Shown: positions 3,561 to 21,136, numbered from the stretch's first letter. The stretch: DNA of 64,000 nucleotides from Acidimicrobiales bacterium (GCA_030448025.1 JAUJNQ010000001.1:199258-263257); one strand, 5' to 3'. The notes: generated by a model not told the origin, from the letters alone. Program-made: numbers and translations.

Positions 3561-4432
3561 TTGACAGCCCATCCCCGGTTCTGCGGAGTGTCGTCCGTCA
3601 GGCTGATGCGATCACCCTTCCGCGAGTGCATGGGACCAGGGCCGTCACCGGCCGTCGCCCTGGAAAGCCACTTTGGCGCCGCTACTCAGATGACCCGCAC
3701 GTCGCCATCGGCCTGGCCTCGTTTGTCGACCTCGCCATTCCAGTGCTCGAGGACCCCCTCACCGAATTTGGCGCCGACGCTGCAGTCAGCGCCCACCCTC
3801 ACACTGGTCCCCGAGTCCCTGGAAGGCACGCCCACACCGCCGGCGGGCGCCAGGCGCTACCGCGACGACACCGCCAACGAAGGCGCCGGGCCGCTGCCCG
3901 CTTGGTGGGGCGACTCGTCAGACCCACTGGTGTATGTCACCTTCGGTTCGGTGGCAGGCGGGCTCGGGCTCTTCCCCGGCTTCTACCGGGACGTGATCGC
4001 CGCCTTGGCCGACGTCCCCATCCGCGTTCTCCTCACCATTGGTGACGCCGGCGACCCCAATGACCTCGGGATTCTTCCGGACAACGTCCATGCGGAGCGT
4101 GGTGGCCCCAGAAGGCGGTGATGTCCCACGCTGCGGCCATGGTCGGGCACGGCGGCTTCGGGACGACGTTGCTCGGCCTGGCCTCTGGGCTCCCAATGGT
4201 GGTCATGCCGCTCTTCGCCGACCAGCCCCATAACGCCCGGCGGGTGGAGGCGGTCGGCGCCGGAATCGTGCTCGAGGGTGGAGCGGCGGCCGTCGTTTCC
4301 CTCCCGGGCGCTGTGCAACGCCTCCTCGCCGACCCTTGCTACCGCACGGCCGCGAGGCACATCGCAGACGAGATCTCGGGGCTCCGTCCAGTCTCGGCGT
4401 CCGTCGCATTCCTTGAGCAGGTGGCCGGGTAG
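3561..4432 (+). pseudogene. GT1-family (MGT/UDP-glycosyltransferase-like) glycosyltransferase, frameshifted
   Basis: PLVYVTFGSVAG...IRVLLTIGD...LPDNVHAE in frame 3561..4121, then HAAAMVGHGGFGTTLLGLASGLPMVVMPLFADQPHNARRVE in frame 4118..4432. N-domain pieces (VAIGLASFVDLAIPVLED) lie in a third frame. Confidence 0.65.
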
Positions 4433-4477
4433 CGGAGCATGTCTTCTGGTTGGTCTGGGTCGGGTTCCAGGACTGAT

Positions 4478-5887
4478 CTAGGGCAGCAGCCGGGCGTTCT
4501 GGCCGGCGTCGAGGAAGGGTTGAGCGGCGACGCCGAGGGTGATGACGAGAACGGTAGCTAGCGACGTCGCCGCTGCCGCCGAGCGCCCGAGGACGGGAAC
4601 CGGCCTGGGGCCGTGGTCGAGGGTGAGGGGGGTGATGATGCGCAGGTAGTAGAAGAGCGAGACGACGGTGTTGATGGCGGCGACGGCGGCCAGCCAGGCG
4701 TAGCCACCGTCAATGGTGGCGGTGAAGAGCAGGAGCTTTCCAGTGAACCCAGCCAGGGGCGGGATGCCGACGAAGGAGAGCAGTGCCACGATGAGGGCGG
4801 CCGCGATCCACGGCCGCCAGCGGGCGAGGCCGCGGTAGTCCTCGAGGCTGGTGCGGCCCCGGAGCTGGACGACCACGCCGAAGGCGGCAAGCTGGCCGGC
4901 GGCGTAGGCCGTGATGAAGAACAGGAGCGCGGGAAGGGCCTGTGGGCTGCGCCCGAGGACCGGGATGGCCATCAGGGCGTATCCGACCTGGGAGACCGAT
5001 GACCAGCCGAGGAGGCGGCGGACGTCGTCCTGCCACAGGGCGGTGAGGTTGCCGACGGTCATGGTGAGGGCGGCGACGCCCGCGGCTAGCGGGCGCCACC
5101 CGACGCTGGTGTCGGGGAGCAGGCTCAGGATGCGGGCGAGGGCGACGATGGCGCCGATCTTGGGGGCGACGGTGAGGAAGGCGGCTGCGGGGGCGGGGGC
5201 GCCTTGGGCGACGTCGGGCACCCAGGTGTGGGCGGGGACGGCGCCGAGCTTGAAGGCGAGGCCGATGGTGACGAGGACGGCGGCGGCGGTGAGGGTGACG
5301 GTGGACGCGCCGGGGAGCGAGGTGGCGGTCCGGTCGTAGAGGGTGGTGCCGGCGGCGCCGAACAGCAGGGCGACCCCCGCGAGGAGGAAGGTGTTGGTGA
5401 GGGCGCCGACGAGGAAGTACTTGGCGCCGGCTTCCACTGAGAGGGCGGAGCGGCGGTGGTAGGCGGCGAGGACGTAGCCGGTGGTCGAGGACAGCAGGAC
5501 GCCGAGGAGCAGCTCGAGGGAGTCGGCGGCGCTGGCCATGGTCATGGCGCCGGCGGCGGACAGGAGGAGCAGGGCGTACCACTCGCCGTGGCGGGCGTCG
5601 GTGGCGAACCACTGCGGGGAGAGGGCGACGGTGATGGCGGTGGTGGCCAGGATGACGAGCTCGGCCCACCCGGCGGCGCCGTCGAGGGCCCAGGCGCCGT
5701 GCCAGGTGAGCTCCTGGGGCCTGGTGGCCAGCCGGATGGCGATCAGGGCGACGGCGATGCCGCAGGTGGCGAGGGCGATGGGTGCACCGACCCACTGGCG
5801 GTCGCGGCGCACGAAGAGAACGACGACGAGGACGACGGCGGCGCCGGCGACGACGGTGAGCTCGCCGGCGATGCCGCCGATGTCCAC
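4478..5887 (-). CDS. nuoN: complex-I-like antiporter subunit N (NuoN/ND2 type)
   Basis: 469 aa, about 14 TM, Mrp/ND2-type antiporter-like sequence. GTG start 1 nt after the nuoM stop. Last gene of the cluster. Confidence 0.85.
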   Translation of the reverse strand: MDIGGIAGELTVVAGAAVVLVVVLFVRRDRQWVGAPIALATCGIAVALIAIRLATRPQELTWHGAWALDGAAGWAELVILATTAITVALSPQWFATDARHGEWYALLLLSAAGAMTMASAADSLELLLGVLLSSTTGYVLAAYHRRSALSVEAGAKYFLVGALTNTFLLAGVALLFGAAGTTLYDRTATSLPGASTVTLTAAAVLVTIGLAFKLGAVPAHTWVPDVAQGAPAPAAAFLTVAPKIGAIVALARILSLLPDTSVGWRPLAAGVAALTMTVGNLTALWQDDVRRLLGWSSVSQVGYALMAIPVLGRSPQALPALLFFITAYAAGQLAAFGVVVQLRGRTSLEDYRGLARWRPWIAAALIVALLSFVGIPPLAGFTGKLLLFTATIDGGYAWLAAVAAINTVVSLFYYLRIITPLTLDHGPRPVPVLGRSAAAATSLATVLVITLGVAAQPFLDAGQNARLLP

Positions 5888-5888
5888 C

Positions 5889-7376
5889 TCAGCCGGTCCC
5901 GACGAGCAGCCGGCTGGTGCCGTCGATGAGGTCGAGCAGCCAGCGGGGGTACACGCCGATGAGCACGATCAGGGCGATCAGCACGCCGAGGATGGCGGTC
6001 TCGGACCTTGCCAGGTCGGGGAACTGGTGGTGTTCGGGTGGGAGCTCACCGAAGAACAGCTTCTGGAGCATCTGGAGGAACAGGGCTGCGGTGATGAGGA
6101 GCCCGAGGAGGGCGACGGCCGCGGCCGCCGGGTAGACGGCGAAGGTGCCGATGAAGATCTGGACCTCGGCGACGAACCCGGCGAGGCCGGGGAGGCCGAG
6201 GCTGGCGAAGGCGGCGATGGTGGTGGCGAAGGTCAAGGTGCGGGCGGGCTGGGCGAGGCCGCCGTAGTGGTCCAGGTCGTAGTCCTGGGTGCGTTGCCAG
6301 AAGGATCCGGCGATGAGGAACAGGGCGCCGGTGATGAGCCCGTGGGCGACCATCTCGACGGTGGCGCCGGTGAGGGCGAGGCGGCGGGCGTCGGCGTGGT
6401 CGGCGGCCATGGCGCCGGCCACGGCGATGCCGAGGACGGCGTAGCCCATGTGGTTGATCGACGTGTAGGCGATCCGGGCCTTGAGGTTGGTCTGGCCGAG
6501 GGCGACGAGGGCGCCGTAGACGATGCTGATGGTGGCGACGATGGCCAGGAGGAACGCCCAGTCGGCGAAGGTGTCCGAGAGCATGGCGAGCGGGATGCGG
6601 ATGAGGCCGAAGGTGCCCATCTTCAACAGGACGCCGGCCAGGATGGCTGAGACGGGTCCTGGGGCGTCGACGTGGGCTGGCGGCAGCCAGGTGTGCACGG
6701 GGACGAGCGGCGTCTTCACGGCCAGCCCGACGATCAGGGCGAGGAGGACCATCCCGGCCCGCAACCCGGCGCCGGCGAGCGGCTGGGTGCGGATGATGGT
6801 GGCCATGTCGAAGGTGAGCGGGTCGGTCTCGAGATAGAGGCCGAGGATGCCGAGCAGCATGACGAGTGAGCCGGCCAGGGTGTACAGGAAGAACTTGAGG
6901 GCGGTGACCCGGGGCTGGCCGTGGCCCCACCGGGCGATGAGGAAGTACATGCCGACGAGGCTGAGGTCGAAGAAGACGTAGAACAGGAGGAGGTCGGTGG
7001 TGAGGAACAGCCCGAGCGACACCGACTCGAGGAACAGCATCCAGGCGTAGTAGTGCCGGGGCTGGCCCTTGGTGTCGACGGGGTAGGCGACGGCCGCGCA
7101 GAACAGCAGGGCGGTGAGGGAGGCGAGGGCGAGGGCGATGCCGTCGACACCGACGCGCCAGCCGACGCCGAGGGAGGGGATCCACGGTGCCCGCTCGTTC
7201 AGCTGGAACAGCGCCGTCGAGCTGGTGTCGTAGCGGACCCAGGCGACGACCATCAGCACCAGGGGGACGGCGGTGGCTGCGACGGCCACCCACCGGGCGG
7301 TGCGGCCGTCCAACCGACGGGCCGCCACCAGCAGGACGGCTCCCGCGAACGGCACGACGATGGAGGCGGTAAGCAC
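5889..7376 (-). CDS. nuoM: complex-I-like antiporter subunit M (NuoM/ND4 type)
   Basis: 495 aa with motifs such as LFLESVSLGLFLTTDLLLFYVFFDLSLVGMYFLI, VHTWLPPAHVDAPGPVSAILAGVLLKMG. GTG start 2 nt after the nuoL stop. Confidence 0.88.
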   Translation of the reverse strand: MLTASIVVPFAGAVLLVAARRLDGRTARWVAVAATAVPLVLMVVAWVRYDTSSTALFQLNERAPWIPSLGVGWRVGVDGIALALASLTALLFCAAVAYPVDTKGQPRHYYAWMLFLESVSLGLFLTTDLLLFYVFFDLSLVGMYFLIARWGHGQPRVTALKFFLYTLAGSLVMLLGILGLYLETDPLTFDMATIIRTQPLAGAGLRAGMVLLALIVGLAVKTPLVPVHTWLPPAHVDAPGPVSAILAGVLLKMGTFGLIRIPLAMLSDTFADWAFLLAIVATISIVYGALVALGQTNLKARIAYTSINHMGYAVLGIAVAGAMAADHADARRLALTGATVEMVAHGLITGALFLIAGSFWQRTQDYDLDHYGGLAQPARTLTFATTIAAFASLGLPGLAGFVAEVQIFIGTFAVYPAAAAVALLGLLITAALFLQMLQKLFFGELPPEHHQFPDLARSETAILGVLIALIVLIGVYPRWLLDLIDGTSRLLVGTG

Positions 7377-7378
7377 GC

Positions 7379-9301
7379 CTACCTCGCCACCGCGGCCAGC
7401 ACGACGAGGACGACGGCGCCGCCGGCGGCGACGACGTAGTAGTGGTGGGCCAGGCCCGTGTGGAGCCGGCGGACGTCCCGGCCACCTTGGGCGACGACCC
7501 CGGTGATCTGGCGGACGGCGCCGTCGACGCCGCGCTCGGTAACGGTCGCGCCCAGCCGGGCGGCCAGGCGGGTGAGGGCGGCGGCGGCCCGCACGCCAGC
7601 ATCGACGACCCGATGGTCGGCCCGGGCCGCGGCGACCGCCAGCCTCGGGGTTAGGGCGGTCGCGGCGCGAATCGGGGCGTCGAGGACCAGGGTGTCGAAC
7701 CGGCCCAGCCCGCGGGCGACGGCCAGCACCGGATCGACGATGACGGCCTTGGTACCGGCCGGCAGGGCGAACCAGTCGGCGACGGCAGCTCGGCGACGGT
7801 CGGGCCTCTCGCGGCCGAGGGCGCCGCTCCGAAAGGCGGTGACGGCCCCGTAGGCGGCGGCCGCCAGGACCAGCAGGGCGGCGATGGCCTCCACGGGAGG
7901 CCCTTCGGGCAGCTCCCCGCCGGCCAGGCGGGCGATGGCGTCATGAGCCGCCGGCCACCACAGAACCCCGAGGCCGAGCGACACCACGACCGACGCCCAG
8001 ACGGCGATCTGCTCGACGCGGGCGGGGCGGCGGGCCAGCTCCGGAGCGGTGTCAGGCGGCGGCGGCCCAAAGGCGAGCAGGTGGAAGCGGGCGGCGTACC
8101 AGGCGCTCAGCCCGCCGGCCAGCACGACGCCGGCGGCAAGCGAGGGCGCCGCCTTCCCGGCGGCGGAGACGATGGCCTCTTTGGTCCACGCGGCCCCCAG
8201 CGGCGGCACCGCGGCCAAGGCCAGCGCCAGCACCGCCGACGCGGTGGCGGTCGCCCTGAGCTCCCGCCCGAGACGCATGCGCCCGAGCTCAGAGCTCGAG
8301 GCCGCTTCGATGGCGATCCCGGCGGCTAGGAACAGACCGACCTTGAACGCGGCGTGGGCGACGAGGTGAGCCAACGCCGCGGCGGGGTAGCCGGCACCGA
8401 CGGCCACGAACATCAGCCCGTACTGGGCCGAGGTCGATGCGGCCAGCAGCTTCTTGGCGTCCTGCTGCATGGTGGCGATGACGCCACCGGCGAGGGCGGT
8501 GGCCAGCCCGACGGCGATGACCACCGGCCCGAACCAGGCGGCCCGGTCGAGCACCGGTTGCAGCCGGATGAGCGCGAAGGCGCCGGCGGCCACCATGGTG
8601 GCGGCGTGCAGGAGCGCGGACACCGACGTCGGTCCGGCCATGGCCGAGAACAGCCACGGGCTGAACGGCAGCTGCGCCGACTTGGCCGCCGCGGCCAGCA
8701 CGATCCCCCCGACGAACAGGTGCAGCCAGCCGCCGTCGAGGCGGGCCAAGTCGGCGTAGGCGAGCGAACCGGTCCCGGCGGCGGCGGCGCCGACTACCGC
8801 GAACAGGCCGAGGTCACCGAAGCGGGTGACGAGGAAGGCGTGGGCTGCGGCCGCTGGCTTGCCGGCCTCCTCCCACTCCGAGGCGATGAGCGCCCAGGAG
8901 CAGGCGCCGACCAGCTCCCAGCCGATCAGGAGGGTCAGCACGTCATCGGCCAGCACCAGCAGCTCCATTGCTCCGGCGAACCCGACGAGGATGGCCACGA
9001 GCCGGGACAGGCCGCGGCGCCGCTCGTGGAACGAGGCGTAGGCGACGACCAGCAGGGCGGCGACGGGCACCACGATGCCGACCACCGCCGCGGTATCGTC
9101 GACCGCGAGGCGCAGCGTCAGCCCGGCCCCCCACCGGTAGGAACCCTGCGGGCGGGCGGCGGCCGCCCACCCGGCCAGGGCGATGACCCCGGCCAGCAGC
9201 GCAGCCGCGGGCGCGGCGATCCGGGCGCGGGAGCGGTTGGCCCCGGCGAGCCACAACACCGGCGCGGCGGCGACGGGCACCAGCGGGACGAGCCAGATCA
9301 T
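7379..9301 (-). CDS. nuoL: complex-I-like subunit L (NuoL/ND5 type) with C-terminal lateral helix
   Basis: About 640 aa. Contains GWELVGACSWALI and SAQLPFSPWLFSAMAGPTSVSALLHAATMVAAG. The C-terminus (VIVDPVLAVARGLGRFDTLVLDAPIRA...VRRLHTGLAHHYYVVAAGGAVVLVVL) matches the HL helix plus last TM. ATG at 9301 overlaps the nuoK stop; an alternative TTG start is at 9304. Confidence 0.88.
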   Translation of the reverse strand: MIWLVPLVPVAAAPVLWLAGANRSRARIAAPAAALLAGVIALAGWAAAARPQGSYRWGAGLTLRLAVDDTAAVVGIVVPVAALLVVAYASFHERRRGLSRLVAILVGFAGAMELLVLADDVLTLLIGWELVGACSWALIASEWEEAGKPAAAAHAFLVTRFGDLGLFAVVGAAAAGTGSLAYADLARLDGGWLHLFVGGIVLAAAAKSAQLPFSPWLFSAMAGPTSVSALLHAATMVAAGAFALIRLQPVLDRAAWFGPVVIAVGLATALAGGVIATMQQDAKKLLAASTSAQYGLMFVAVGAGYPAAALAHLVAHAAFKVGLFLAAGIAIEAASSSELGRMRLGRELRATATASAVLALALAAVPPLGAAWTKEAIVSAAGKAAPSLAAGVVLAGGLSAWYAARFHLLAFGPPPPDTAPELARRPARVEQIAVWASVVVSLGLGVLWWPAAHDAIARLAGGELPEGPPVEAIAALLVLAAAAYGAVTAFRSGALGRERPDRRRAAVADWFALPAGTKAVIVDPVLAVARGLGRFDTLVLDAPIRAATALTPRLAVAAARADHRVVDAGVRAAAALTRLAARLGATVTERGVDGAVRQITGVVAQGGRDVRRLHTGLAHHYYVVAAGGAVVLVVLAAVAR

Positions 9302-9606
9302 CAACGTCCCATCGAGTCGAGGCCTTCGGTCATGTCGACCTGGCGGGCCCGGTAGAGGGCGACGACGACAGCGAGGCCGATGGCCATCTCGATCGCCATG
9401 ACCGCCATGGCCAGGATGAGCAGCAGCTGCCCTTTGGGTTCACCACCGGCCGAGTAGGCCCACAGCCCACCGCCGGCCAGCATCACCCCGTTGATCATGA
9501 GCTCGATGCCCATCAGCAGCATCACGATCGACTGCTGGGCCAAAGCACCCCACAGCCCGAGGCCGAGCAGGGCGGCCGCCACGATCAGCACCGATACGAT
9601 GGTCAA
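9301..9606 (-). CDS. nuoK: complex-I-like subunit K (NuoK/ND4L type)
   Basis: 101 aa, 3 TM, MGIELMINGVML...AMAVMAIEMAIGLAVVVALYR. TTG start overlaps the nuoJ stop (TTGA). The listed 202-aa ORF is an upstream over-extension. Confidence 0.85.
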   Translation of the reverse strand: MTIVSVLIVAAALLGLGLWGALAQQSIVMLLMGIELMINGVMLAGGGLWAYSAGGEPKGQLLLILAMAVMAIEMAIGLAVVVALYRARQVDMTEGLDSMGR

Positions 9607-10262
9607 TGCATCCCGCCGTGGCCGTCCCCGCCGTGGCCGTCCCCGCCGTCGGTGCTCGTCTCGGGGACGACGCCGGTGGGGTACGTGCCGAGGACAGGGT
9701 CGAGGGGAGGCGGGAGGGATCCGTCGTCGCCGGCCGCCTCGCCGTAGCGGCTGCGGCGGCTCGACAGGACGACCGAGCCGATCATCGTCGCCACCAGGGC
9801 GACCGCCGCCGACTCGAAGATCAGCATCGAGCGGCCCATCAGCTCGGTGCCCAGCTCGACGATCACCGGCCGGCCCGGCTCCAGCGGCCGGTCGGGGAAG
9901 CGGCCCCACACGGCCACGACGATGCCGCCTCCGAACAGCACCCAGCCGGCAGCCGCAGCCAGACGCGGCTGGTGGACCATGACCATCGGGTTCAGCCCGG
10001 CCGGGTTCATCATGAAGGCGACCATGAAGATGGCCATCACGGTCATCTCCACCGTCATCATGAACAGCAGGGCGACACCCAGGTAGGCGCCTCCCAGCAG
10101 CAGGAGGATGGCGCCGACGTTGAGGAACGAGACGAGGAGCAGGAACGTGGCCCGCACCATCGAGTCGGTGCGGAACACCCGCCAGCCCGAGAGGACGGCG
10201 GCGGCCGCGAACACCCAGAACGAGACGTGCACGAAGACCGACGGTGAGCTGACGTCGATCAC
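9603..10262 (-). CDS. nuoJ: complex-I-like subunit J (NuoJ/ND6 type) with Asp/Gly/His-rich C-terminal tail
   Basis: GTG at 10262 (VIDVSSPSVFVHVSFWVFAAAAVLSGWRVF...) overlaps the nuoH stop (GTGA). About 5 TM. The tail ends ...TSTDGGDGHGGDGHGGMH. The listed 437-aa ORF over-extends into nuoH. Confidence 0.8.
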   Translation of the reverse strand: MIDVSSPSVFVHVSFWVFAAAAVLSGWRVFRTDSMVRATFLLLVSFLNVGAILLLLGGAYLGVALLFMMTVEMTVMAIFMVAFMMNPAGLNPMVMVHQPRLAAAAGWVLFGGGIVVAVWGRFPDRPLEPGRPVIVELGTELMGRSMLIFESAAVALVATMIGSVVLSSRRSRYGEAAGDDGSLPPPLDPVLGTYPTGVVPETSTDGGDGHGGDGHGGMH

Positions 10263-11188
10263 AGCGCTTCCACCCCGGCGATGACCAGGTCGAGAAAGGC
10301 CAGTGGCAGCAGCACCAGCCAGCAGACAGTGACGAACCGCTCGGTCCGCACCCGGGCGAAGAGGTGGCCGGAGGCGACCAGGGCGGCCAGCACGACCAAG
10401 GTCTTCAGGACGACCCAGGCCGGGCCCGGGAGCACCGGGCCCTGCCAGCCGCCGAGGAACACCGTGGCCGCCATCGCCGAGAACGAGGTCAGCATGGCGG
10501 CACGGGCTCCGGACCAGACCAGGCGGGGCCGGCCTGACACATCGGCCGTCGTGCCCCCGGACAGGTCGTCGCCGTCGGCCAGGTTCAGCGGCCCCCAGGT
10601 CGACGAGCCGAGGGCGACGACGGCGAACAGCGGCAACCCGAGGGGCTGGCGGACGACGTTCCACAACCCGTGCTGTGACTCGACGATCCGGCTGAGCTGG
10701 AGGGACTCGGCGGGGATCGCCGCCGCGATCAGGACGAACATGCTCAGCAGCAGGTACGACAGGCCGGCGGCCAGGAACCGGTAGGCGGCCAGCAGCGACT
10801 GGTGGGTGTTGGCCGACCAGCCGTGCAGGAAGATGGCCACGATGGCCAGCGACTCGACGGTGCCCCACAGCACGATGCCGGCCTCGACATCGGCGACGGA
10901 GAACGACGCCGACCACGGGATCACGGCGAGGCCGGCCGCGGCCAGGCCCGCGTACAGCGCGGGGGCAAGCGCCCAGGAGGCGGCGTCGGGACGCTCGGTG
11001 GCCGACGGCTGCTGCACGACCAGGAGCGCCGCCCGGCGGAGCGGGCCGGCCAGCACCGACCGGCCGATGCCTGCCCCGCTGACGGCGGCGGCCACCGCCG
11101 CGTCAAGCACGGCGACCACATAGGCGCCGGCCGCAAGCACGCCGGCGGTCAGCAGCGGTGCAGCCCACACCTCCGCCTGGGCGGTCAC
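10259..11188 (-). CDS. nuoH: divergent complex-I-like subunit H (NuoH/ND1 type)
   Basis: 309 aa. HGWSANTHQSLLAAYRFLAAGLSYLL aligns by eye to GWaSNsKYallGglRaaAQmiSYE. FLGGWQGP and ARVRTERFVTVCWLVLLP resemble the C-terminal RxxxPRxRxDq...W. The AETNRxPFD loop is replaced by GSSTWGPLNLADGDD. GTG start overlaps the upstream stop. Confidence 0.7.
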   Translation of the reverse strand: MTAQAEVWAAPLLTAGVLAAGAYVVAVLDAAVAAAVSGAGIGRSVLAGPLRRAALLVVQQPSATERPDAASWALAPALYAGLAAAGLAVIPWSASFSVADVEAGIVLWGTVESLAIVAIFLHGWSANTHQSLLAAYRFLAAGLSYLLLSMFVLIAAAIPAESLQLSRIVESQHGLWNVVRQPLGLPLFAVVALGSSTWGPLNLADGDDLSGGTTADVSGRPRLVWSGARAAMLTSFSAMAATVFLGGWQGPVLPGPAWVVLKTLVVLAALVASGHLFARVRTERFVTVCWLVLLPLAFLDLVIAGVEAL

Positions 11189-12225
11189 GCCTGGGCCTCG
11201 ATCACCGCTTCGGCACGATCGGTCGGCAGGTCGAAGCTGCAGATCGTGACCACGGCGTCGGACCAGTCCTGGCCGACCAGGACCTCGGCGACCCGCTCCA
11301 GTGACGGGCCGGGACTTCGGCCTTCGGGTGCCGACGGGTCGAGGCGGCGCACGAGGCGGGCCCGGGCGTCCTCACCGTCGATCACGCCGACACCCGACCA
11401 GGCGGCCGGCAGGCCGCTGCGGCGCACGAGTCGCGCCAGCGCCGCCCTCGACGCCGGGGCGGGTGCGGCTCGGGCCAGCCGGGCCGCTCGCACGGCCAAG
11501 GCACCCAGTCCAGCCAGGCGCAGAGCCTCGGCCAACCACCGAAGGTCGTGCTGCGCCCCACCAGCGGCTGGATCGAGCCGGTCGAGCCGAGGCCCCGAAC
11601 CGAGGTCGAGTACCTCCAGCTTCGCCTCCTGCACGACATCGCCCTGCAGAACCGCATGCACCCGCAGCCCGTTTGGGAACCCGGGCAGGAACGGGCCCAG
11701 GACCACCGGCAGCCGGTCCAGGGCCAGGCCATCTCGATCGTCTCCGGTCATGGCCATCGGCCGGCCCCAGGGGACGCCGCCCATCATCCCCTCGCCTCCC
11801 TGCCCGTGATCGCCCCGCCCCTCGAACCGGTTCGGAGGATCGTCGGCCAACACCGCCGCATCTGATCGGATCCGACCCAGGCACAGGTCACGGTGGAGGG
11901 CCACCACCGAGCCGACCGGATCCGCGTCGGTCACGACCGACGCGTCCCGCAGCGCCGCCGGCCGGTCGCCGTCGACGTCCGCTGTCCACCACAGCGTGCC
12001 CCGTGGCGCCGGCAGCTGGTCGTGCACCCGGTCGACGGCCACACCAAGCGGTCCCGGGAAGCGGCCGGCGGCCACCAGCACCGTGGCATGCCGCGGGGAC
12101 ACCACGAGCCGCAGCCGCGCATCGAAGGCCAGCTCCACCGGCAGGAGACCGGTCCCGCCGCCGCGGGCCACGAACACCGGCACCGGGGCGGTCGCCGCCA
12201 AGCGACGGACCGCCGCTACTGCCAC
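11185..12225 (-). CDS. degenerate NuoB-NuoD fusion-like protein (Q-module relic without Fe-S or quinone-site residues)
   Basis: 346 aa. N-terminal LRLVVSPRHATVLVAAGRFPGPLGVAVDRVHDQLPAPRGTLWW resembles NuoB RfG...SPRqADvmiVaGtvt.km.p.l..vydQMPePKwVi. VVLGPFLPGFPNGLRVHAVLQGDVVQEAKL resembles NuoD NfGPQHPaaHGvlRlvleLdGEvV. The C-terminus LVGQDWSDAVVTICSFDLPTDRAE resembles NuoD ..G..iaDvvai.gSiD.vmGevDR. Only 2 Cys in the whole protein. Its GTG start overlaps the nuoA 3' end by 10 nt. Confidence 0.55.
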   Translation of the reverse strand: MAVAAVRRLAATAPVPVFVARGGGTGLLPVELAFDARLRLVVSPRHATVLVAAGRFPGPLGVAVDRVHDQLPAPRGTLWWTADVDGDRPAALRDASVVTDADPVGSVVALHRDLCLGRIRSDAAVLADDPPNRFEGRGDHGQGGEGMMGGVPWGRPMAMTGDDRDGLALDRLPVVLGPFLPGFPNGLRVHAVLQGDVVQEAKLEVLDLGSGPRLDRLDPAAGGAQHDLRWLAEALRLAGLGALAVRAARLARAAPAPASRAALARLVRRSGLPAAWSGVGVIDGEDARARLVRRLDPSAPEGRSPGPSLERVAEVLVGQDWSDAVVTICSFDLPTDRAEAVIEAQA

Positions 12226-12563
12226 CGGAAGGCGCCCTCACGCCAGGCGTACAGGATCCCGAGCGACAACAACCCCAGGAACACGCCCATGTCGGCGAAC
12301 GCGGTCATGCCCTCCTCGACGAAGACGACCGCCCACGGGTACATGAACATCATCTCCATCTCGAAAGCGACGAACACGAGGGTCATGGGGTAGTAGCGGG
12401 CGTGGAACCGGCTCCACGCATGCGTCTCCGAAATACCGCCGCCCAGGAACGGCGCACGGAACGGCCACAGCCCCTTCTTCCCGGCCCGCCACCCCCGCGC
12501 AAGGAAGACCGCGACCAGCACCGACCCGAACGCCGCGGAAGCCGACGCCAGGACGCTCAGCAC
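12216..12563 (-). CDS. nuoA: complex-I-like subunit A (NuoA/ND3 type)
   Basis: 115 aa, 3 TM. YYPMTLVFVAFEMEMMFMYPWAVVF...LGILYAWREGAFRWQ matches the NuoA FDvEv.FlfPWA / Y.wkkGaLeW pattern. Confidence 0.85.
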   Translation of the reverse strand: MLSVLASASAAFGSVLVAVFLARGWRAGKKGLWPFRAPFLGGGISETHAWSRFHARYYPMTLVFVAFEMEMMFMYPWAVVFVEEGMTAFADMGVFLGLLSLGILYAWREGAFRWQ

Positions 12564-12723: not shown

Positions 12724-13155
12724 TCACCGGTCGTCCGCCGCCGGGAACCGAGCGACCACGGCGAGGTAGGCGGCGAGGGCGAGGAGGAACACCACGAACC
12801 ACGTGAGGTTGCGTCCGGGCATGAAGTGGGTGCTGATGTGGCCGAGGAACAGGTCCATCCAAGGCTCGTGGGCCACGCCACCAGCGAAGAGGAAGTCGGG
12901 AAACATGGCCATGACGTGGGCCAGGAACGGCCACACCAGGGGCAGCGGCACCGGTCTGCGAATGCGGGCGGCGACCGCTGCCATCACCACCAGCGCCGCG
13001 GCGGCGCCCACGAAGAAGTGGGTGAACCAGTGGAAGCGGGCGTCGTGGCCCCGGTAGGAGGCGTAAAGGCCCACCTCGGCCAGCACGGCGACGACGCACC
13101 ACAGGCACACCCGCAGCGCTGGAGTCGGCTGGACGGCTGGGTTCGCTGCGGTCAT
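12724..13155 (-). CDS. His-rich polytopic membrane protein, unknown function
   Basis: 143 aa, about 4 TM. Histidines cluster at helix ends (GHDARFHWFTHFF, FLAHVMAMFPDF, AHEPWMDLFLGHISTHF). 4-nt overlap with the upstream gene. Confidence 0.5.
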   Translation of the reverse strand: MTAANPAVQPTPALRVCLWCVVAVLAEVGLYASYRGHDARFHWFTHFFVGAAAALVVMAAVAARIRRPVPLPLVWPFLAHVMAMFPDFLFAGGVAHEPWMDLFLGHISTHFMPGRNLTWFVVFLLALAAYLAVVARFPAADDR

Positions 13156-13676
13156 GGCAAAGCGTCCAGGATGGTCCGGACCTCGCTGAGCTCGTCAGCC
13201 ACGGCCGGGTCGAGTGTCCGGTACCGGATGGCGCCGGCGCTGTCGACGACGGCGTAGCCCACCGGCGTACCGCCCCCCCGGGGGCGCCGCATGCCATAGG
13301 CCGCCGCCAGCGCCCCGTCCGCATCGTTGACGACCGCGTCAGCGCCCTCACAGCTGTGGGTGCCGGCACCGTCCACCACCACCGCCGTCGCCGTGGCCTT
13401 GTCGGGAAGGCCGCTCGCGGCGAAGACCCGGCACAGCCGGGGGAGACGTCCCGTCCGCTCGAAGAACACGACCGTGGGTCGCGACGGGGCGGGAAGGCCC
13501 GGCGCCACCGCGGGTGCCGGCACGGGAAGGTCGCCGGCGTCGACGAACCCGGGCCGCTGCCACGCCGGATCGGGGTCGTCGAGTGGCTCTCGCGCCGCCC
13601 GGGCGACGGAGAGCAGCAGGCCTAGGCCGATCGCCGCCGCCAGCCAGATGACCACCAGCGGCCTTGCCCCACTCAC
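13152..13676 (-). CDS. membrane-anchored thioredoxin-fold (AhpC/TlpA-like) protein lacking a CxxC
   Basis: 174 aa. N-terminal TM anchor, then PTVVFFERTGRLPRLCRVF ... GYAVVDSAGAIRYRTLDP, a layout typical of the redoxin fold. Overlaps both neighbours by 4 nt. Confidence 0.45.
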   Translation of the reverse strand: MSGARPLVVIWLAAAIGLGLLLSVARAAREPLDDPDPAWQRPGFVDAGDLPVPAPAVAPGLPAPSRPTVVFFERTGRLPRLCRVFAASGLPDKATATAVVVDGAGTHSCEGADAVVNDADGALAAAYGMRRPRGGGTPVGYAVVDSAGAIRYRTLDPAVADELSEVRTILDALP

Positions 13677-14641
13677 TGCTGTGCCTGCTTGTCGGAGTAG
13701 CGGAGCTGCCAGCTGCCGCCGGCGTCCGAGGAGCGGTAGATGGCGGTGGCATCATCGGCCGACGCCGCTGCGTAGACGTCGGTCCCGGCCACCAGCAGGG
13801 CCTGTGGTTGCCCGGCCAGTGCCGCTCGAGGCTCCCACCGGTCGTCGACGCGCCGGTAGGTCTGCCCGGTCCTCGACACGCCCCACAGGCCCAGCTCGGT
13901 CCCCCAGGAGACAAAGGCCAGCTGCGGCCCGTCGACTGGTTGCCAGCTGCGACCGCCGTCGCCACTGTCGGCCAGCCCCCGCTCGGTCATGGCCACCACG
14001 TGGTCGCCGTCGGCCGGGTCGACGGCGAAGGTGCCGATGCCGATCTCCGAGCGGGTGTCCCACCGCTTGCCGTCGTCGCTGACCATGAACCGTCCGCCGG
14101 TGGAGTCGTAGCCGTAGACCTTGCCGTGGGCGGCGACCAGCGAGTGGAAGTCGGCCTCTCCGAGCAGTGACAGCGGCTTCCACATCCGGCCGCCGTTGGT
14201 GCTCTCGATGAGGCCGAGGAGCGGGGGGCTGCCGGGCTTGCGCAAGTCCTTGTCGTTGGGATCCGGGTGGCCGCTGCCCAGGAAGCGGTCAGGTCCGACC
14301 ACGGTGAAGCCCATCGTGTCCTGCACGGCATCACCGACCCGCTGCGCCTTGCCCTGAGCGGGAACCCGGTACAGCCCGAGGTGGGTCGCCGCGTACAGGT
14401 CCTTGTCGGCCGGGTTGATGCCGAGGCCGTGCACATGAGCGACCCCCCCGGACGAGCCCGCCGTCCTCGGGCTGTCGTCGTCCCGCACGACCACGACTAG
14501 GACGGCCAGCACCGCCAGCGCCCCGGCCACCACCGCCCAGGCAGGAAACGCCCGTCGGCTCGGACGCTTGTTCTGCACCGGCGGCCGCCTCGGCTGGCCG
14601 CCGGTCCGGGTCTTTGCCGACCCCGTCTTGCTCGACGCCAT
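13673..14641 (-). CDS. F510_1955-family / BNR-sialidase-like beta-propeller protein, membrane-anchored
   Basis: 322 aa. TM anchor followed by repeated S.D.G..W motifs (STNGGRMWKP, SDDGKRWD, SGDGGRSWQP, SSDAGGSWQ). This family is recurrently found in heavy-metal islands. Confidence 0.6.
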   Translation of the reverse strand: MASSKTGSAKTRTGGQPRRPPVQNKRPSRRAFPAWAVVAGALAVLAVLVVVVRDDDSPRTAGSSGGVAHVHGLGINPADKDLYAATHLGLYRVPAQGKAQRVGDAVQDTMGFTVVGPDRFLGSGHPDPNDKDLRKPGSPPLLGLIESTNGGRMWKPLSLLGEADFHSLVAAHGKVYGYDSTGGRFMVSDDGKRWDTRSEIGIGTFAVDPADGDHVVAMTERGLADSGDGGRSWQPVDGPQLAFVSWGTELGLWGVSRTGQTYRRVDDRWEPRAALAGQPQALLVAGTDVYAAASADDATAIYRSSDAGGSWQLRYSDKQAQQ

Positions 14642-17275: not shown

Positions 17276-18425
17276 ATGACCGCGCCTGAGGCCTCCGCCA
17301 TCGGAACGGCGAAGCATCGGGCCGTTGACGTGCTGATCGTCGGGGCCGGCCAGGCCGGCCTCGGCACCGGCTACTGGCTGTCGCAGCGGACGTCGGCGTC
17401 GTTCCTGATCGTCGACGCCGCCCCGCGGCCGGGTGAGAGCTGGTGCAACCGGTGGGACAGCTTGACGCTGTTCACACCCCGACGGTTCAGCGCCCTGCCC
17501 GGGCTCCGCTTCCCGAAGGGCAAGGGCCGTTACCCGACCAAGGCGGAGATGCAGGCCTACCTGGCCGACTACGCCCGTCGCTTCGACCTGCCCCTGCTGC
17601 TCAACACCCGCACCGAGGTGGTCGAGGCGGCCGAAGGCGGCGGGTTCGTGGCCCGCACGAACCGGGGCACCATCAGCGCCCGCCATATGGTGGTGGCCAC
17701 CGGCCCGTTCTCCCGACCCGCCGTGCCCGCCGCCGCCGACGGCCTTGACGTCGAGGTGCGCCAGCTGCACTCGTCGGAGTACCAGCGGCCGTCCGACATC
17801 CCCAATGGTGATGTCCTGGTGGTCGGCGGCGGGAACAGCGCCGCGCAGCTGGCCTGCGAGCTGGGCCACCCACCAGGTCACGGTCGCCGCGCCCGGTCCG
17901 CTGTGGTACCTGCCGGAGGAGATCCTCGGGATCAGCCTGTACTGGTGGATCTACCTGACCGGCATCCTCAACGCCGGCGCCGACTCCTGGGTCGGCCGGT
18001 ACGTCCGCCAGCGCGGCGACGCGATCATCGGACGCCAGCTCGACCGGCTCGTCGCCGACGGCACCGTCCGCCTGCTCGCCTCCCGGGTCGTCCAGGGCCA
18101 GGGCCGCACCCTCACCCTCGAGGACAGAACCGCACTCACACCCAGCACGGTGCTGTGGTGCACCGGGTTCCGGCCCGACCACCCCTGGCTGCGCGTGCCC
18201 GGCGCCCTGGACCCCGACGGCAACCCTCGGCACCAGGCGGGAGCCTCCCCCGTCTCGGGCCTGCACTGGATGGGCCTGCCGTGGCAGACCCGGTTGAACT
18301 CCTCCATCGCCGACGGGGTTGACCGCGACGCCCGGGACCTGGTGAGCCGACTGGAGTCACATGGGCTCAGCCACCGGACCGCACCACCAAACCCTTGCAC
18401 ACCCACCCCCGGTGGGGTAGGGTAG
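17276..18425 (+). pseudogene. CzcO-like FAD/NAD(P)-dependent oxidoreductase (flavin monooxygenase fold), one frameshift
   Basis: VDVLIVGAGQAGLGTGYWL (FAD GxGxxG) and VLVVGGGNSAAQLACEL (second GxGxxG) in frame 17276. Continuation ..THQVTVAAPGPLWYLP...VLWCTGFRPDHPWL is in frame 17745..18425. The shift is near 17870. Confidence 0.65.
18395..18423 (+). promoter_or_regulatory. csoR-copA promoter with CsoR-type operator in the spacer; likely leaderless transcript
   Basis: TTGCAC-N17-TAGGGT. The spacer ACCCACCCCCGGTGGGG closely resembles the M. tuberculosis cso operator core CCCACCCCCAGTGGGGTGGG. The -10 ends 7 nt before ATG 18431. Confidence 0.6.
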
Positions 18426-18430
18426 CCGCC

Positions 18431-18736
18431 ATGAAGGTCGACAACCAGCGGTCCGTGCTCAACCGGCTCAAGACCTCGCGCGGTCATTTGGATGGGATCA
18501 TCCGGATGGTCGAGGAGGACGCCTACTGCCCCGAGGTGATGAAGCAGCTGTCGGCGGTGCAGGGCTCGTTGGAGCGGGCCAGCCGCATCGTGCTGCGCAA
18601 CCACCTGGAGACGTGTGTGGCGGCGGCGATGGTGGCGGGGCGGACCGACGAGATCGTGGATGAGCTGATGGAGGCCCTGCGCTTCGACCGGATCACCACC
18701 GGCCCGCTGCCAGAGCCGATCGGACAGGGCACCTGA
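18431..18736 (+). CDS. csoR: copper-sensing transcriptional repressor CsoR
   Basis: 101 aa, [53 protein letters not shown], with the C-H-C Cu(I) ligand set (YC..., H...C) present. Confidence 0.9.
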
Positions 18737-21136
18737 TGGGCACCCAGACCATGGACCGGACCGGCCCCGTCGAGCTCGTCGTCTCAGGGATGACCTGCGG
18801 CTCGTGCGCCACCCGGGTCCAGAAGGTCCTCTCCCGCCACCAGGGCGTGGAGGACGCCGCCGTGAACTTCGCCACGAAGCGGGCGACCGTGCAGCTCGAC
18901 CCTGACCGGGTGGAGATCAAAGATCTCGTTGCTGCGGTGGCCAAGGCCGGTTACGGCCTGGCGCCGGTCTCGGGATCGTCGGACACCGACGCCGAGGAGT
19001 CGGAGGACAAGGTCCGTTCGATGTGGCTGCGGCGGGTGCTGGTGGCCTGGCCGCTCGGGATCATCGTGCTGGTCCTGTCGCTGTTCTACATGCACGAACC
19101 GTGGGCCCGGTGGACGGCGTTCGCCCTGACCGTCCCGGTGCAGTTCTGGGCCGGGTTCCCGTTCCTGAAGGTCGCAGCCCAGCGCCTGCGGAGCTTCCAG
19201 GCCAACATGGACTCGCTGATCTCGATGGGGACGCTGGCCGCGTTCTTCTTCTCCGCCTACCAGGTGGCGTTCGGGCCGGCCCACTCCGACCACTACTTCG
19301 ACACCTCGGCGCTGATCATCGCCTTTTTGCTCCTCGGCCGCTTCTTCGAGGCCACGGCCAAGGGGAAGGCGTCCCACGCCATCCGGGCTCTGCTCGAGCT
19401 GGGGGCCAAGGAGGCCAGGCTCATCGTGGACGGCGAGGAGCGGCTCGTCCCCGTCGACCAGGTCGCCCTCGGTGACCTCCTCCGGGTCCGACCGGGTGAG
19501 AAGGTCCCCGTCGACGGTGAGGTCGTCGACGGCGCCTCCGCTGTGGACGAGTCGATGCTGACCGGTGAGTCCGTCCCGGTCGACAAGAAGCCCGGCGACA
19601 AGGTGGCCGGCGCCACGCTGAACACCCAGGGCGTCCTCACCGTGCGGGCCACCGCGGTCGGCACCGACACCGCCCTGTCCCAGATCGTCAAGCTGATCGA
19701 GGAGGCCCAGGGGACCAAGGCCCCCGTGCAGGCCCTCGCCGACCGGATCTCGGCGGTGTTCGTGCCCATCGTCCTGGCCATCGCCACCGCCACCCTGGCC
19801 GGATGGTGGGTCCTGGGTGACGACCCGACCAAAGGGCTGGTGGCCGCGGTCGCCGTGCTCATCATTGCCTGCCCGTGCGCGTTGGGCCTGGCCACCCCGA
19901 CGGCCATCCTGGTCGGCACCGGCAAGGGCGCATCGATGGGTGTGCTCATCAAGGGCGGTGAGGTTCTGGAGCGGTCCAAGAAGGTCGACACCGTCGTGTT
20001 CGACAAGACCGGGACGCTCACCAAGGGCCAGATGTCTCTCACCGACGTGATGGTCGGCGCCGGCGTCGACCGGGCCAACCTGCTCCGGTGGGCCGCCGCC
20101 GTCGAGGACGGCTCGGAGCACCCCGTCGGCCACGCTGTCGTCGACGGCGCCCGCGCCGCTGGGATGACGATCCCGGCGGTCACCGGTTTCGCATCCGTCG
20201 CCGGCCACGGCGTCCGGGCCGAGGTCGACGGTGTCGTCGTGCACGTCGGTCGCCGCAAGCTGGCGGCCGAAGCCGGCCTGGTCCTGACCGACGGCCTGGA
20301 GCAGGCCGCCGTCAGAGCTCGAGGCCCGAAGGCAAGACGGCGGTGTTCGCCGGGTGGGACGGCGCTGTGCGCGGTGTCCTGTCGGTGGCCGACACCCTGA
20401 AGGACGGCGCGCCGAGCGCCATCGCCGTCCTGCGGTCCCTGGGCGTGCAGGTGGTCATGATCACCGGCGACAACCGGCGCACGGCCGAGTCGATCGCCGC
20501 CCAGGTGGGCATCGACCGGGTCTGGCCGAGGTCCTCCCCGCCGACAAGGTCGACGAGGTCCGCCGCCTCCAAGCGGACGGGCGGGTCGTGGCGATGGTCG
20601 GCGACGGCATCAACGACGCCCCGGCGCTCGTCCAGGCCGACCTCGGGGTCGCCATCGGCACCGGCACCGACGTCGCCATCGAGTCCTCCGACATCACCCT
20701 GCTCTCCGGCGATCTCCACGGCGTGGCCAACGCCATCCGCCTCTCCCGACGCACGTTCCGCACCATTCTCCAGAACCTGGTGTGGGCGTTCGGGTACAAC
20801 GTGCTGCTCATCCCCCTCGCCGCCGCCGGGCTCCTCAACCCCATCCTGGCTGGCGGTGCCATGGCCATCTCCAGCGTGTCCGTCGTCACCAACAGCCTCC
20901 GCCTAGCCCGGTTCAAGGGCGTCAAGCACGGCAAGAACAAGGACAAGCGGGCGAAGGCCACGCAGGCGAAGACCAGTCCGGCCAAGGTCGCGACCGGTCG
21001 AGAGGTGACAACCCACCGACCGCACCGACCGTACCGACGGTCTCCGCGCCGCCCGCAGCCGGAACAAACGGTTCGGCCACATCGCCGTCTGCGCCACAGC
21101 AGCTGCCGCCTCTCCAGCCGGCCCCTGAGGCTGTAG
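18736..21136 (+). pseudogene. copA: copper-translocating P1B-type ATPase CopA, two frameshifts in the P-domain
   Basis: ATG overlaps the csoR stop (TGATG). N-terminal [31 protein letters not shown] in frame 1. [11 protein letters not shown]...VMITGDN is in a second frame (from about 20320). [10 protein letters not shown]...[12 protein letters not shown] is in a third frame (from about 20520). The reading frame then runs on to 21136. Confidence 0.85.

Follow-up and report, generated by a model that had tools for sequence, protein, structure and literature searches.

A conserved complex I-like gene module without redox subunits and its possible role in copper(I) export

Organization and distribution of the gene cluster

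A 64,000-nt stretch of the Acidimicrobiales bacterium GCA_030448025.1 (JAUJNQ010000001.1:199258-263257), here called the window, carries a cluster of eight minus-strand genes related to the membrane arm of respiratory complex I (NADH:quinone oxidoreductase, NDH-1, encoded by nuo genes). The cluster occupies positions 4478–12563, numbered along the whole 64-kb stretch, which has a G+C content of ~70%. All eight open reading frames (ORFs) are open, and seven of them correspond to known membrane subunits; the remaining one, between nuoA and nuoH, encodes a protein referred to below as X. In the order A-X-H-J-K-L-M-N, the genes are:

12216–12563, minus strand: nuoA-like, 115 aa, first gene of the module (PF00507, E 2.2e-22)
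11185–12225, minus strand: X, 346 aa, the sole peripheral subunit, a NuoB/NuoD fusion relic
10259–11188, minus strand: nuoH-like, 309 aa (PF00146, E 3.7e-39)
9603–10262, minus strand: nuoJ-like, 219 aa (PF00499, E 3e-14)
9301–9606, minus strand: nuoK-like, 101 aa (PF00420)
7379–9304, minus strand: nuoL-like, 641 aa, with lateral helix and C-terminal anchor transmembrane helix (TM) (NF005141, residues 2–639)
5889–7376, minus strand: nuoM-like, 495 aa (TIGR01972, 478 bits against a cut-off of 263.8)
4478–5887, minus strand: nuoN-like, 469 aa, last gene of the module (TIGR01770, 335.7 bits against a cut-off of 332.6)

The genes are tightly packed. As read from the sequence, nuoA and X share a 10-nt overlap, GTGGCAGTAG (12216–12225), followed by 4-nt overlaps at X/H (GTGA), H/J (GTGA) and J/K (TTGA), an overlap TGATG at K/L, and gaps of 2 nt (L/M) and 1 nt (M/N). 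An earlier interpretation made from the DNA alone (the sequence-only reading) had described eight coupled genes with these coordinates and junctions, and this description is confirmed. The module consists of these eight genes only, whose best matches are all of the Nuo type, and the junctions leave no room for extra small membrane genes. Within GTGGCAGTAG, NuoA ends in ...WQ* and X starts with MAV; the overlap is also kept in related loci, and nearly all family members have both it and the MAV start, which suggests that translation of NuoA and X may be obligatorily coupled.

Pfam and NCBIfam searches matched A, H, J, K, L, M and N each to its own Nuo family, and the set of seven membrane core subunits is complete. 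NuoM and NuoN pass the cut-offs of the NuoM and NuoN subfamilies, scoring as these and not as MrpD. The NuoL profile is covered end to end, and the lateral helix and last TM align with those of E. coli NuoL, so that the complete membrane arm described by the sequence-only reading, lateral helix included, is upheld. The electron-input subunits NuoC, E, F, G and I had been described as missing, and indeed E. coli NuoB, CD, E, F, G and I used as tblastn queries gave no match anywhere in the 64-kb window. Nor did any of 80 related loci contain separate genes for NuoB, C, D or I, or for the N-module subunits NuoE, F and G.

These 80 loci were fetched from among 214 genomes with relatives of X, found in a scan of one genome per species. 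They belong to Actinomycetota, Alpha- and Gammaproteobacteria, Gemmatimonadota and Acidobacteriota, and the lineages include Acidimicrobiia, Nitriliruptorales, Euzebyales, Halomonadaceae, Salinisphaera, Aurantimonadaceae, Amorphus, Caenispirillum, Sphingomonadaceae, Gemmatimonadales and Acidobacteriota. In every fetched locus with enough DNA the order A-X-H-J-K-L-M-N is found on one strand with nothing inserted, and identities to the window proteins are 59–73% (M), 50–66% (N) and 36–68% (X). No flanking gene is universally conserved among the fetched loci. The synteny, which the sequence-only reading had proposed to survey in Actinomycetota, thus recurs well beyond that phylum, and decay is not indicated. 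Conservation of order and motifs across phyla points to selection on the family and, judged in this way, the cluster is a conserved module, not a decaying copy.

Upstream of nuoA and 160 nt away is a group of three overlapping minus-strand genes (12724–14641). Their products are a His-containing membrane protein of 143 aa, a secreted protein of 174 aa that matches Redoxin weakly, and a BNR/Ycf48-like propeller of 322 aa. These genes were considered as members of the module and rejected, since they are not conserved with the operon in other genomes.

A close relative gives a more complicated picture. An exact look-up of the window X in a contig index gave no match, and the window NuoM is found unchanged in GCA_030448245.1. 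Over 4 kb, the contig JAUJNH010000011.1 of this assembly (locus L085, 1–6001) is 96.9% identical to window positions 4434–8430. Here the C-terminal half of nuoL continues in frame from the 5' half of a gene for a tyrosine integrase, and the place of A-X-H-J-K upstream is taken by a MerR gene and a gene of 105 aa. Divergence between the two copies is mosaic: 0 of 1488 nt in M, 70 of 1050 (6.7%) in the C-terminal half of L and 47 of 1410 (3.3%) in N. The codon changes comprise 36 synonymous and 30 non-synonymous in the C-terminal half of L, and 26 and 17 in N; a usable dN/dS was not obtained. Both copies have changes at conserved sites. The arrangement could be a real mobile-element event, a recombination, or a chimera in the assembly of a metagenome-assembled genome (MAG).

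The sequence-only reading had also taken the intact operon among many frameshifted neighbours as a sign of selection. Two split genes were verified, a glycosyltransferase and a Cu ATPase, but the eight other ORFs, in four adjacent pairs, look separate and intact: of the ten ORFs (five adjacent pairs) surveyed only the glycosyltransferase is split, and the break in the Cu ATPase was found separately. With a 97%-identical relative carrying a truncated operon, selection argued from the neighbouring genes in the window is weak, and the case for it therefore rests on the family, where conservation across phyla supplies it. The glycosyltransferase (3561–4432, plus strand, GT1 family) is divided into two overlapping ORFs, with Pfam matches in the C-terminal piece only; an intact 296-aa glycosyltransferase follows nuoN in GCA_030448245.1 (L085 6081–6971), apparently on the strand opposite to nuoN. 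The closest complete relative in the genome collection is in the Acidimicrobiia MAG MFD05442.bin.2.295 (L003, 9747–17794), where X, J, L, M and N are each recovered in 2–6 tblastn pieces. These breaks look like long-read homopolymer frameshifts rather than biology, and they counsel caution in calling frameshifts in such assemblies pseudogenes.

Protein X, the proton paths and a methionine/histidine signature

Protein X has no match in Pfam, and its family is large, with at least 444 relatives in a protein collection at 90% identity and 306 clusters (50% identity) matched by the family profile at E<=1e-30. With this profile, residues 40–83 match PSST/NuoB in the Protein Data Bank (PDB) at E 1.7e-9, where SPRHAxVLLVAG...RVHDQLPHPR of X is aligned to SPRQADVMIVAG...KVYDQMPEPR. 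An hhalign comparison of the X profile with E. coli NuoB gave E 5e-5; that with E. coli NuoCD gave no match, and is uninformative as the target was a single sequence. The AlphaFold2 model of X is of high confidence (predicted local distance difference test, pLDDT, 90.2; predicted TM-score, pTM, 0.89), and Foldseek assigns its N-terminal domain to the NuoB/PSST/MbhJ fold (probability 1.0; target-normalised TM-score ~0.5–0.58). Modelled alone (pLDDT 89.8), the C-terminal domain finds almost exclusively NuoD-type folds, with MbsL the best match (probability 0.99), followed by NdhH, NuoCD, the 49-kDa subunit and large subunits of [NiFe] hydrogenases; the individual E-values are weak. Long-form homologues of ~430 aa have an extra segment that passes PF00346 with up to 47 bits, and the kinship of X with NuoD rests on these PF00346 matches together with the fold matches.

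Two length classes of X can be distinguished, a short one of ~300–350 aa and a long one of ~420–470 aa (e.g. P0029, P0036 and P0053; loci L012 and L014). The NuoD segment of the long form, NARAAGxxxDARxDDPAYxxLGF, is the one that passes PF00346. The median length in related loci is 422 aa, and the window X (346 aa) is a more reduced short form without this segment.

No conserved Cys was found among 99 sequences of X, and cluster N2 can therefore not be bound; the position of SMGSC in NuoB, after PRYV, aligns to WWTA in X. The β1-β2 loop of NuoD, which contacts quinone, reads GPQHPxxHG. At this position X has GPFLPxxPxG, with no His. Retention of the N2 cysteines and quinone-site residues would, according to the sequence-only reading, have refuted its view, and neither is kept. 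X is a fused relic, composed of an N-terminal domain of NuoB fold, a Gly/Met loop, and a reduced NuoD-like C-terminal domain, with no Fe-S ligands. This agrees with the 346-aa fusion relic of the sequence-only reading, the supporting evidence being the PSST/NuoB profile match, the Foldseek folds, PF00346 in the long forms and the lack of a conserved Cys. The loop is the following feature:

11716–11826, minus strand: loop of X, residues 134–170, between the B-like and D-like domains, GxGxxGQGGEGMMGGxP(Y/W)GRPMAMTxDDRDGLxLD

These 37 residues are near-invariant from Actinomycetota to Gammaproteobacteria, with invariant Gly, Pro, Arg and Asp columns; M147 and M157 are present in 73 of 73 sequences, M148 and M159 in 72. 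The loop is also the only low-confidence stretch of the model (pLDDT 45–66). "Relic" is a word that undersells it, since it is the most conserved part of X.

The family alignments comprise 47–74 members per subunit (those of NuoA and X do not include an E. coli row), and they show the charged residues of the antiporter-like subunits to be largely intact. In E. coli numbering, E144, K229, K342, K399, H254, H334 and H338 of NuoL are present in 62–64 of 64 sequences. NuoM retains K234, K265, E407, H241, H322 and H348 in all 64, with E144 replaced by Asp in 64/64, and NuoN retains K247 and K395 in 65/65 and K217 in 58/65. The Glu of NuoN TM5 (E. coli E133), a member of the canonical Glu-Lys pair beside NuoK, has become Leu in 64 of 65. 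The change of Glu to Leu in NuoN and to Asp in NuoM may reflect a difference in how the A/J/K channel hands over to the first antiporter module. Both membrane Glu of NuoK are kept (E35, E. coli E36, in 74/74; E73, E. coli E72, in 68/74). In NuoH, alignment with the E. coli protein shows that the motif of the TM1-2 loop, ERRxxGxxQxRxGPNxxGxxGxLQxxAD, is replaced by unconserved sequence, and the TM5-6 loop is kept only in part. Since the residues of NuoL, M, N and K are kept and the NuoH motif is lost, the predicted proton channels are retained and there is no sign of a quinone site.

These losses bear on whether the module is an energy-converting oxidoreductase, in which a copper redox centre, or a partner supplied from elsewhere (an N/Q module, a cupredoxin or a cytochrome c), feeds quinone and drives proton pumping. 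Genes for cupredoxins, cytochromes c and multicopper oxidases often adjoin the operon, the TM5-6 loop of NuoH is partly conserved, and energy from copper redox reactions has been proposed for a cassette in Marinobacter atlanticus (PMC8233155). However, Fe-S ligands, NuoI and NuoC are lacking, and the quinone-chamber loop of NuoH is lost. The β1-β2 loop of X has GPFLP, without His, as against GPQHP in the sequence of Nqo4. Cupredoxins, multicopper oxidases and cytochromes c are periplasmic, whereas X would lie at the cytoplasmic face by homology, and the potentials of Cu2+/Cu+ and of quinone leave little energy for pumping. For the M. atlanticus cassette itself, a main part in the electron-transport chain was judged unlikely (PMC8233155). 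A redox function of this kind is considered very unlikely.

The subunits which differ most in composition from their canonical counterparts are NuoA, NuoJ and NuoK. Met makes up 9.1, 8.8 and 9.2% of these proteins across the family, compared to 2.1–2.9% in the H, L, M and N subunits that the same operons encode, and to 3.3% and 5.0% in NuoJ and NuoK of E. coli. More than 25 invariant Met occupy sites of V, L, I, Y or T in canonical subunits. The main features, the first two taken from the family alignments, are:

12342–12422, minus strand: NuoA residues 48–74, His pair of the TM1-2 loop (H48, H54) and TM2 motif AFEMEMMFMYPW
9972–10067, minus strand: NuoJ residues 66–97, TM3 Met ladder FMMxVEMxVMAxFMVxFMM, then the loop NPAGLNPMxMVHQ
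9606–9656, minus strand: His-rich C-terminal tail of NuoJ, DGGDGHGGDGHGGMH; the window tail reads DGHGGDGHGGMH

H48, H54, M60, M69, M71, M72 and M74 of NuoA are each present in 47 of 47 sequences, and canonical NuoA/NdhC/ND3 proteins read FDVETVFLYPW at the position of AFEMEMMFMYPW. In NuoJ, M68, M69, M73, M76, M80, M84, M85, M93, M95 and H97 are each found in 73/73, the ladder positions being V, Y, V, L or V in canonical sequences; TM3 has also gained an invariant Glu, and the canonical Tyr59 is replaced by Met. M69, M73, M76, M80 and M84 are confined to 80 degrees of the helix circumference, forming a ladder ~22 Å long. The NuoJ tail has at least three His in its last 20 residues in 64 of 72 members (e.g. 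GGHHHHHH, GGHHHCH), and no member of the other subunit families has a His-rich tail. NuoK carries M29, M32 and M70 in 74/74 and M67 and M74 in 70/74, where E. coli has F, I, I, A and A, so that Met is found at i-3 and i-6 of both membrane Glu.

By homology to canonical complex I, we take the TM1-2 loop of NuoA, both the TM3-4 loop and the C-terminus of NuoJ, and X to lie on the cytoplasmic side, round the former quinone chamber, and NuoA TM2, NuoJ TM3 and NuoK TM2-3 to form the E-channel. Thioether ladders accompanied by His, as in CusA, CusF and Ctr1, belong to the chemistry of Cu(I)/Ag(I) transport, unlike that of Na+ or H+. The conserved Met/His clusters of the module lie on a predicted transmembrane path and in a predicted cytoplasmic tail, a feature shared with Met-relay transporters.

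The invariance of these gained features, namely the Met ladders, the NuoJ TM3 Glu, the His tail and the X loop, argues for a new function rather than decay. That the operon is a decaying, non-functional leftover of a duplicated nuo operon would agree with the integrase-nuoL fusion and missing A-X-H-J-K of GCA_030448245.1, and with the window NuoL, which deviates at three otherwise near-invariant positions. Eight open frames with conserved overlapping junctions, and order, motifs and 50–73% identity maintained across phyla, are hard to reconcile with it, and this explanation is extremely improbable.

The same residues set the module apart from an Mrp-like Na+(K+)/H+ antiporter, or a proton translocator, that would maintain ion gradients in marine, halophilic and alkaliphilic bacteria. 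Such a role fits a family rich in Halomonadaceae, Salinisphaera, marine alphaproteobacteria and Actinomycetota of saline or alkaline habitats, and Salinispora, Kocuria and marine Streptomyces have the cluster where terrestrial relatives do not. L, M and N share homology with MrpA and MrpD and keep the ion-path residues of these, and a redox module is absent. The sites that bind Na+ and K+ are, however, built from carboxylate, carbonyl and hydroxyl oxygens, so that neither the His tail nor the invariant Met, of which A, J, K and X have more than 25, would have a rationale; MrpB, E, F and G are absent; in many lineages the operon lies inside cop/cue islands; and the marine link is a correlation in few genomes. 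An alkali-cation antiporter is therefore rated as unlikely.

Copper genes near the module and a possible function

Clustering and Pfam assignment of flanking genes showed recurrent CopB, multicopper oxidase, CsoR, MerR/CueR-like regulators, cupredoxin, CusA-like RND pumps, cytochrome c and two-component regulators. Single tblastn queries were used on the 62 loci that are 17 kb or longer; in 31 of them at least one gene for CopB, multicopper oxidase, CsoR, P1B ATPase, cupredoxin or CusA is found at a distance of 10 kb or less. These 31 represent many lineages and many arrangements, and multicopper oxidase and cupredoxin genes are the commonest copper neighbours. Three plasmids illustrate the association. 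In Halomonas sp. KO116, copC, copD, cupredoxin, copRS, multicopper oxidase and copB genes are followed, after three genes, by nuoA-hyp-HJKLMN (hyp denotes the hypothetical gene between nuoA and nuoH) and then by egtB and egtD. In an Acuticoccus sp., copZ, a P1B ATPase gene and cueR are separated by one gene from nuoA-hyp-HJKLMN, and TolC, a copper oxidase, a cupredoxin and a copper-binding protein follow. In Roseivivax marinus, nuoA-hyp-HJKLMN directly precedes cueR, P1B ATPase, copZ, DsbA, cytochrome c and multicopper oxidase genes. The genomic association is thus strong, and co-expression with copper-resistance genes is shown only for a short Marinobacter variant.

The ergothioneine biosynthesis genes egtB and egtD are also found directly after nuoN in Halomonadaceae (L082 22015–24287, and ~12–15 other loci, e.g. 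L039 and L061), and an APC-family permease gene lies upstream of the operon on the Halomonas and Acuticoccus plasmids. Both might be connected with thiol- or histidine-based buffering of copper.

The window has a copper locus of its own, outside the module and ~6 kb from it:

18323–21136, plus strand: csoR and Cu-type P1B ATPase gene (CsoR PF02583, E 6e-25)

The ATPase gene (18736–21136) has a frame break near 20354–20400, with the HMA/E1-E2 part and the hydrolase part in two ORFs. A predicted CsoR-type operator, CCCACCCCCGGTGGGGTAGGG (18402–18422), precedes csoR and occurs as a single copy in the window.

Taken together, the Met/His signature and the copper-gene context, neither of which the sequence-only reading had noticed, favour Cu(I) over Na+ or H+ as the transported ion. 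On this evidence the module is likely to have some part in the handling of copper. More specifically, the module may be a proton-driven (secondary-active) Cu(I)/Ag(I) exporter built on a complex I scaffold; this is the reading we prefer, though with somewhat less than even confidence, and Ag(I) would probably be exported as well. In the mechanism we propose, cytoplasmic Cu(I) would be caught by the His tail of NuoJ and passed to a site made up of the X loop (GMMGGxPYGRPMAM), the TM1-2 loop of NuoA (H48, H54) and the TM3-4 loop of NuoJ (NPMxMVHQ), which would sit where the quinone chamber was. From there it would move along the Met/Glu-lined former E-channel (NuoA TM2, NuoJ TM3, NuoK TM2-3) to the outer face, with energy provided by the inward flow of protons through L, M and N. 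Coupling would then resemble complex I in reverse, or Mrp with Cu+ in place of Na+. Held a little more tentatively still is the wider proposal of an unrecognised class of copper pump, in which a complex I membrane arm runs backwards, driven by several protons, with the E-channel as a Met/Glu metal conduit and the quinone chamber, closed by X, as the loading site. Among the three roles that the sequence-only reading had suggested for a membrane arm with no evident electron input, an ion translocator or antiporter is the best supported, and a partner in trans or another non-canonical coupling less so.

Copper could also be moved for purposes other than detoxification, either delivered as Cu(I) to periplasmic cuproenzymes (multicopper oxidase, cupredoxins, oxidases) or imported. 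The Met/His signature and copper context are the same as for an exporter, and the commonest neighbours, multicopper oxidase and cupredoxin, are themselves potential recipients. Yet the neighbouring genes are the classical ones of copper resistance (CopA/CopB, CusA, CsoR or CueR with a P1B ATPase, CopC/CopD), and three proton channels seem too much for trace delivery; the direction of transport, it should be said, cannot be read from sequence. Delivery or import is judged quite unlikely.

Several observations weigh against copper export. The rate of copper genes at random loci, a few per cent, is an estimate and not a measured count, and the other half of the long loci, many of them Halomonadaceae with egtB/egtD after the operon, have no copper gene within 10 kb. 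No CsoR operator was found upstream of the window operon: TACCC..GGGTA is absent from the window, and ACCCC-N4-GGGGT occurs only at csoR. A CueR box before nuoA is likewise absent on the two plasmids checked, CueR dyads being found only at the copZ/ATPase promoter on L083, and none above chance on L082. The continuity and sidedness of the Met path rest on homology to canonical complex I. A marine or hyperosmotic link has been published, and the distribution is rich in halophiles. Finally, the operon is truncated inside nuoL in GCA_030448245.1, and is thus dispensable in at least that lineage.

If copper export is correct, the module would be the first natural use of complex I coupling machinery beyond redox chemistry or Na+/H+ exchange, and would provide a proton-driven route, in addition to the P1B ATPases, by which Cu(I) is removed from the cytoplasm; plasmids and genomic islands carry it in at least five phyla. 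The "marine adaptation" nuo genes would be re-explained, and both their annotation as NADH-quinone oxidoreductase subunits, with electron-transport GO terms, and their use as markers of marine adaptation would be corrected. It is debated how events at the quinone site of complex I travel via the E-channel to the antiporter-like subunits, and a module with no redox module, all three proton channels, and apparently a different ion in the E-channel offers a system for comparison.

Comparison with known systems

The gene set itself has already been published, and its function was only guessed at. Since 2012, nuoA-hypothetical-nuoHJKLMN of Salinispora, Kocuria flava and marine Streptomyces has been listed as a partial NDH-1 operon and as a marine-adaptation gene set (PMC3314556, PMC6002675, PMC6676996), so the statement of the sequence-only reading that no system with this gene set had been described was mistaken; PGAP also annotates the set routinely. 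These reports (Penn & Jensen 2012; Sun 2018; Almeida 2019) give the same order, in which nuoA and nuoH likewise flank an unnamed gene, and Sun (2018) described a seven-gene partial NDH-1 operon of Salinispora-like organization in Kocuria flava S43. The equation with the present module is by description of synteny, the Salinispora, Kocuria and Streptomyces genomes being outside the 80 loci. In PMC6676996, the hypothetical proteins of the figure are described as lacking homologues in UniProt or PDB. The published distribution is scattered through the species tree of Actinobacteria and includes related Proteobacteria, from which horizontal transfer was inferred. The three papers guessed at a proton or sodium pump, without asking for the energy source and without mention of copper; neither the Met/His signature nor the missing electron input appears in them, whereas both are noted here. 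In the open-access literature, no paper was found that names a B/D relic, a Met-lined E-channel or a copper-transport role. Within the literature searched, the sequence evidence for copper is unpublished for this module, which can be viewed as a member of the complex I/Mrp superfamily with a new predicted substrate and coupling direction.

The nearest link to copper is in Marinobacter atlanticus CP1, where Eddie et al. (2021; PMC8233155) found a nuoA-hyp-D-H-J-K-L cassette (ACP86_11540–11570) within a copper-resistance (cop) operon and co-expressed with it, and speculated on energy from copper redox reactions. [quoted passage not shown] Like the module, it is a complex I-like membrane cassette with no electron-input module. 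By its description it differs in having seven genes, with no NuoM or NuoN, a NuoL without the lateral helix, and apparently separate B-like and D-like parts. Beyond this note, no described copper-transporting complex I-like system was found in the open-access literature.

Another extra and incomplete nuo cluster in Actinomycetota is the second cluster of Streptomyces, nuoA2-B2-D2-H2-I2-J2-K2-L2-M2-N2, which retains B, D and I as separate genes. Complex I itself shares with the module the subunits A, H, J, K, L, M and N, the lateral helix of NuoL, the antiporter Lys, Glu and His, the carboxylates of NuoK and NuoA, and the NuoB and NuoD folds. The module differs in lacking C, E, F, G, I, any Fe-S cluster and the quinone loop of NuoH, in the replacement of NuoJ Tyr59 by Met and of the NuoN TM5 Glu by Leu, and in a Met-lined E-channel.

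In the Ehr, MBH, MBS and Mbx complexes, relatives of group-4 [NiFe] hydrogenases, the NuoB-, C-, D- and I-like subunits are still separate proteins and Fe-S clusters are present, while the module has a single 346-aa fusion without cofactors. A NuoD-like part without catalytic ligands is shared with Ehr, and the C-terminal domain of X finds its best fold match in MbsL of MBS. Membership of Ehr, as defined in PMC6349859, was considered and rejected, since Ehr has separate B-, C-, D- and I-like subunits and the module has one fused X and no C- or I-like gene.

CusA, CusF, Ctr1 and CcoA use conserved Met clusters or ladders, sometimes with a His or aromatic cap, as transient Cu(I) ligands; the module resembles such Met-relay Cu(I)/Ag(I) transporters in chemistry only, with no homology of sequence or fold. 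The closest mechanistic analogy is the Mrp antiporter, likewise a redox-less multi-subunit machine with proton-conducting antiporter-like subunits whose Lys, Glu and His are intact, and in which the other cation probably passes close to the NuoJ/NuoK-like part. The module differs from Mrp in lacking MrpB, E, F and G, in possessing NuoH, NuoA and a peripheral B/D relic, and in its predicted soft-metal substrate.

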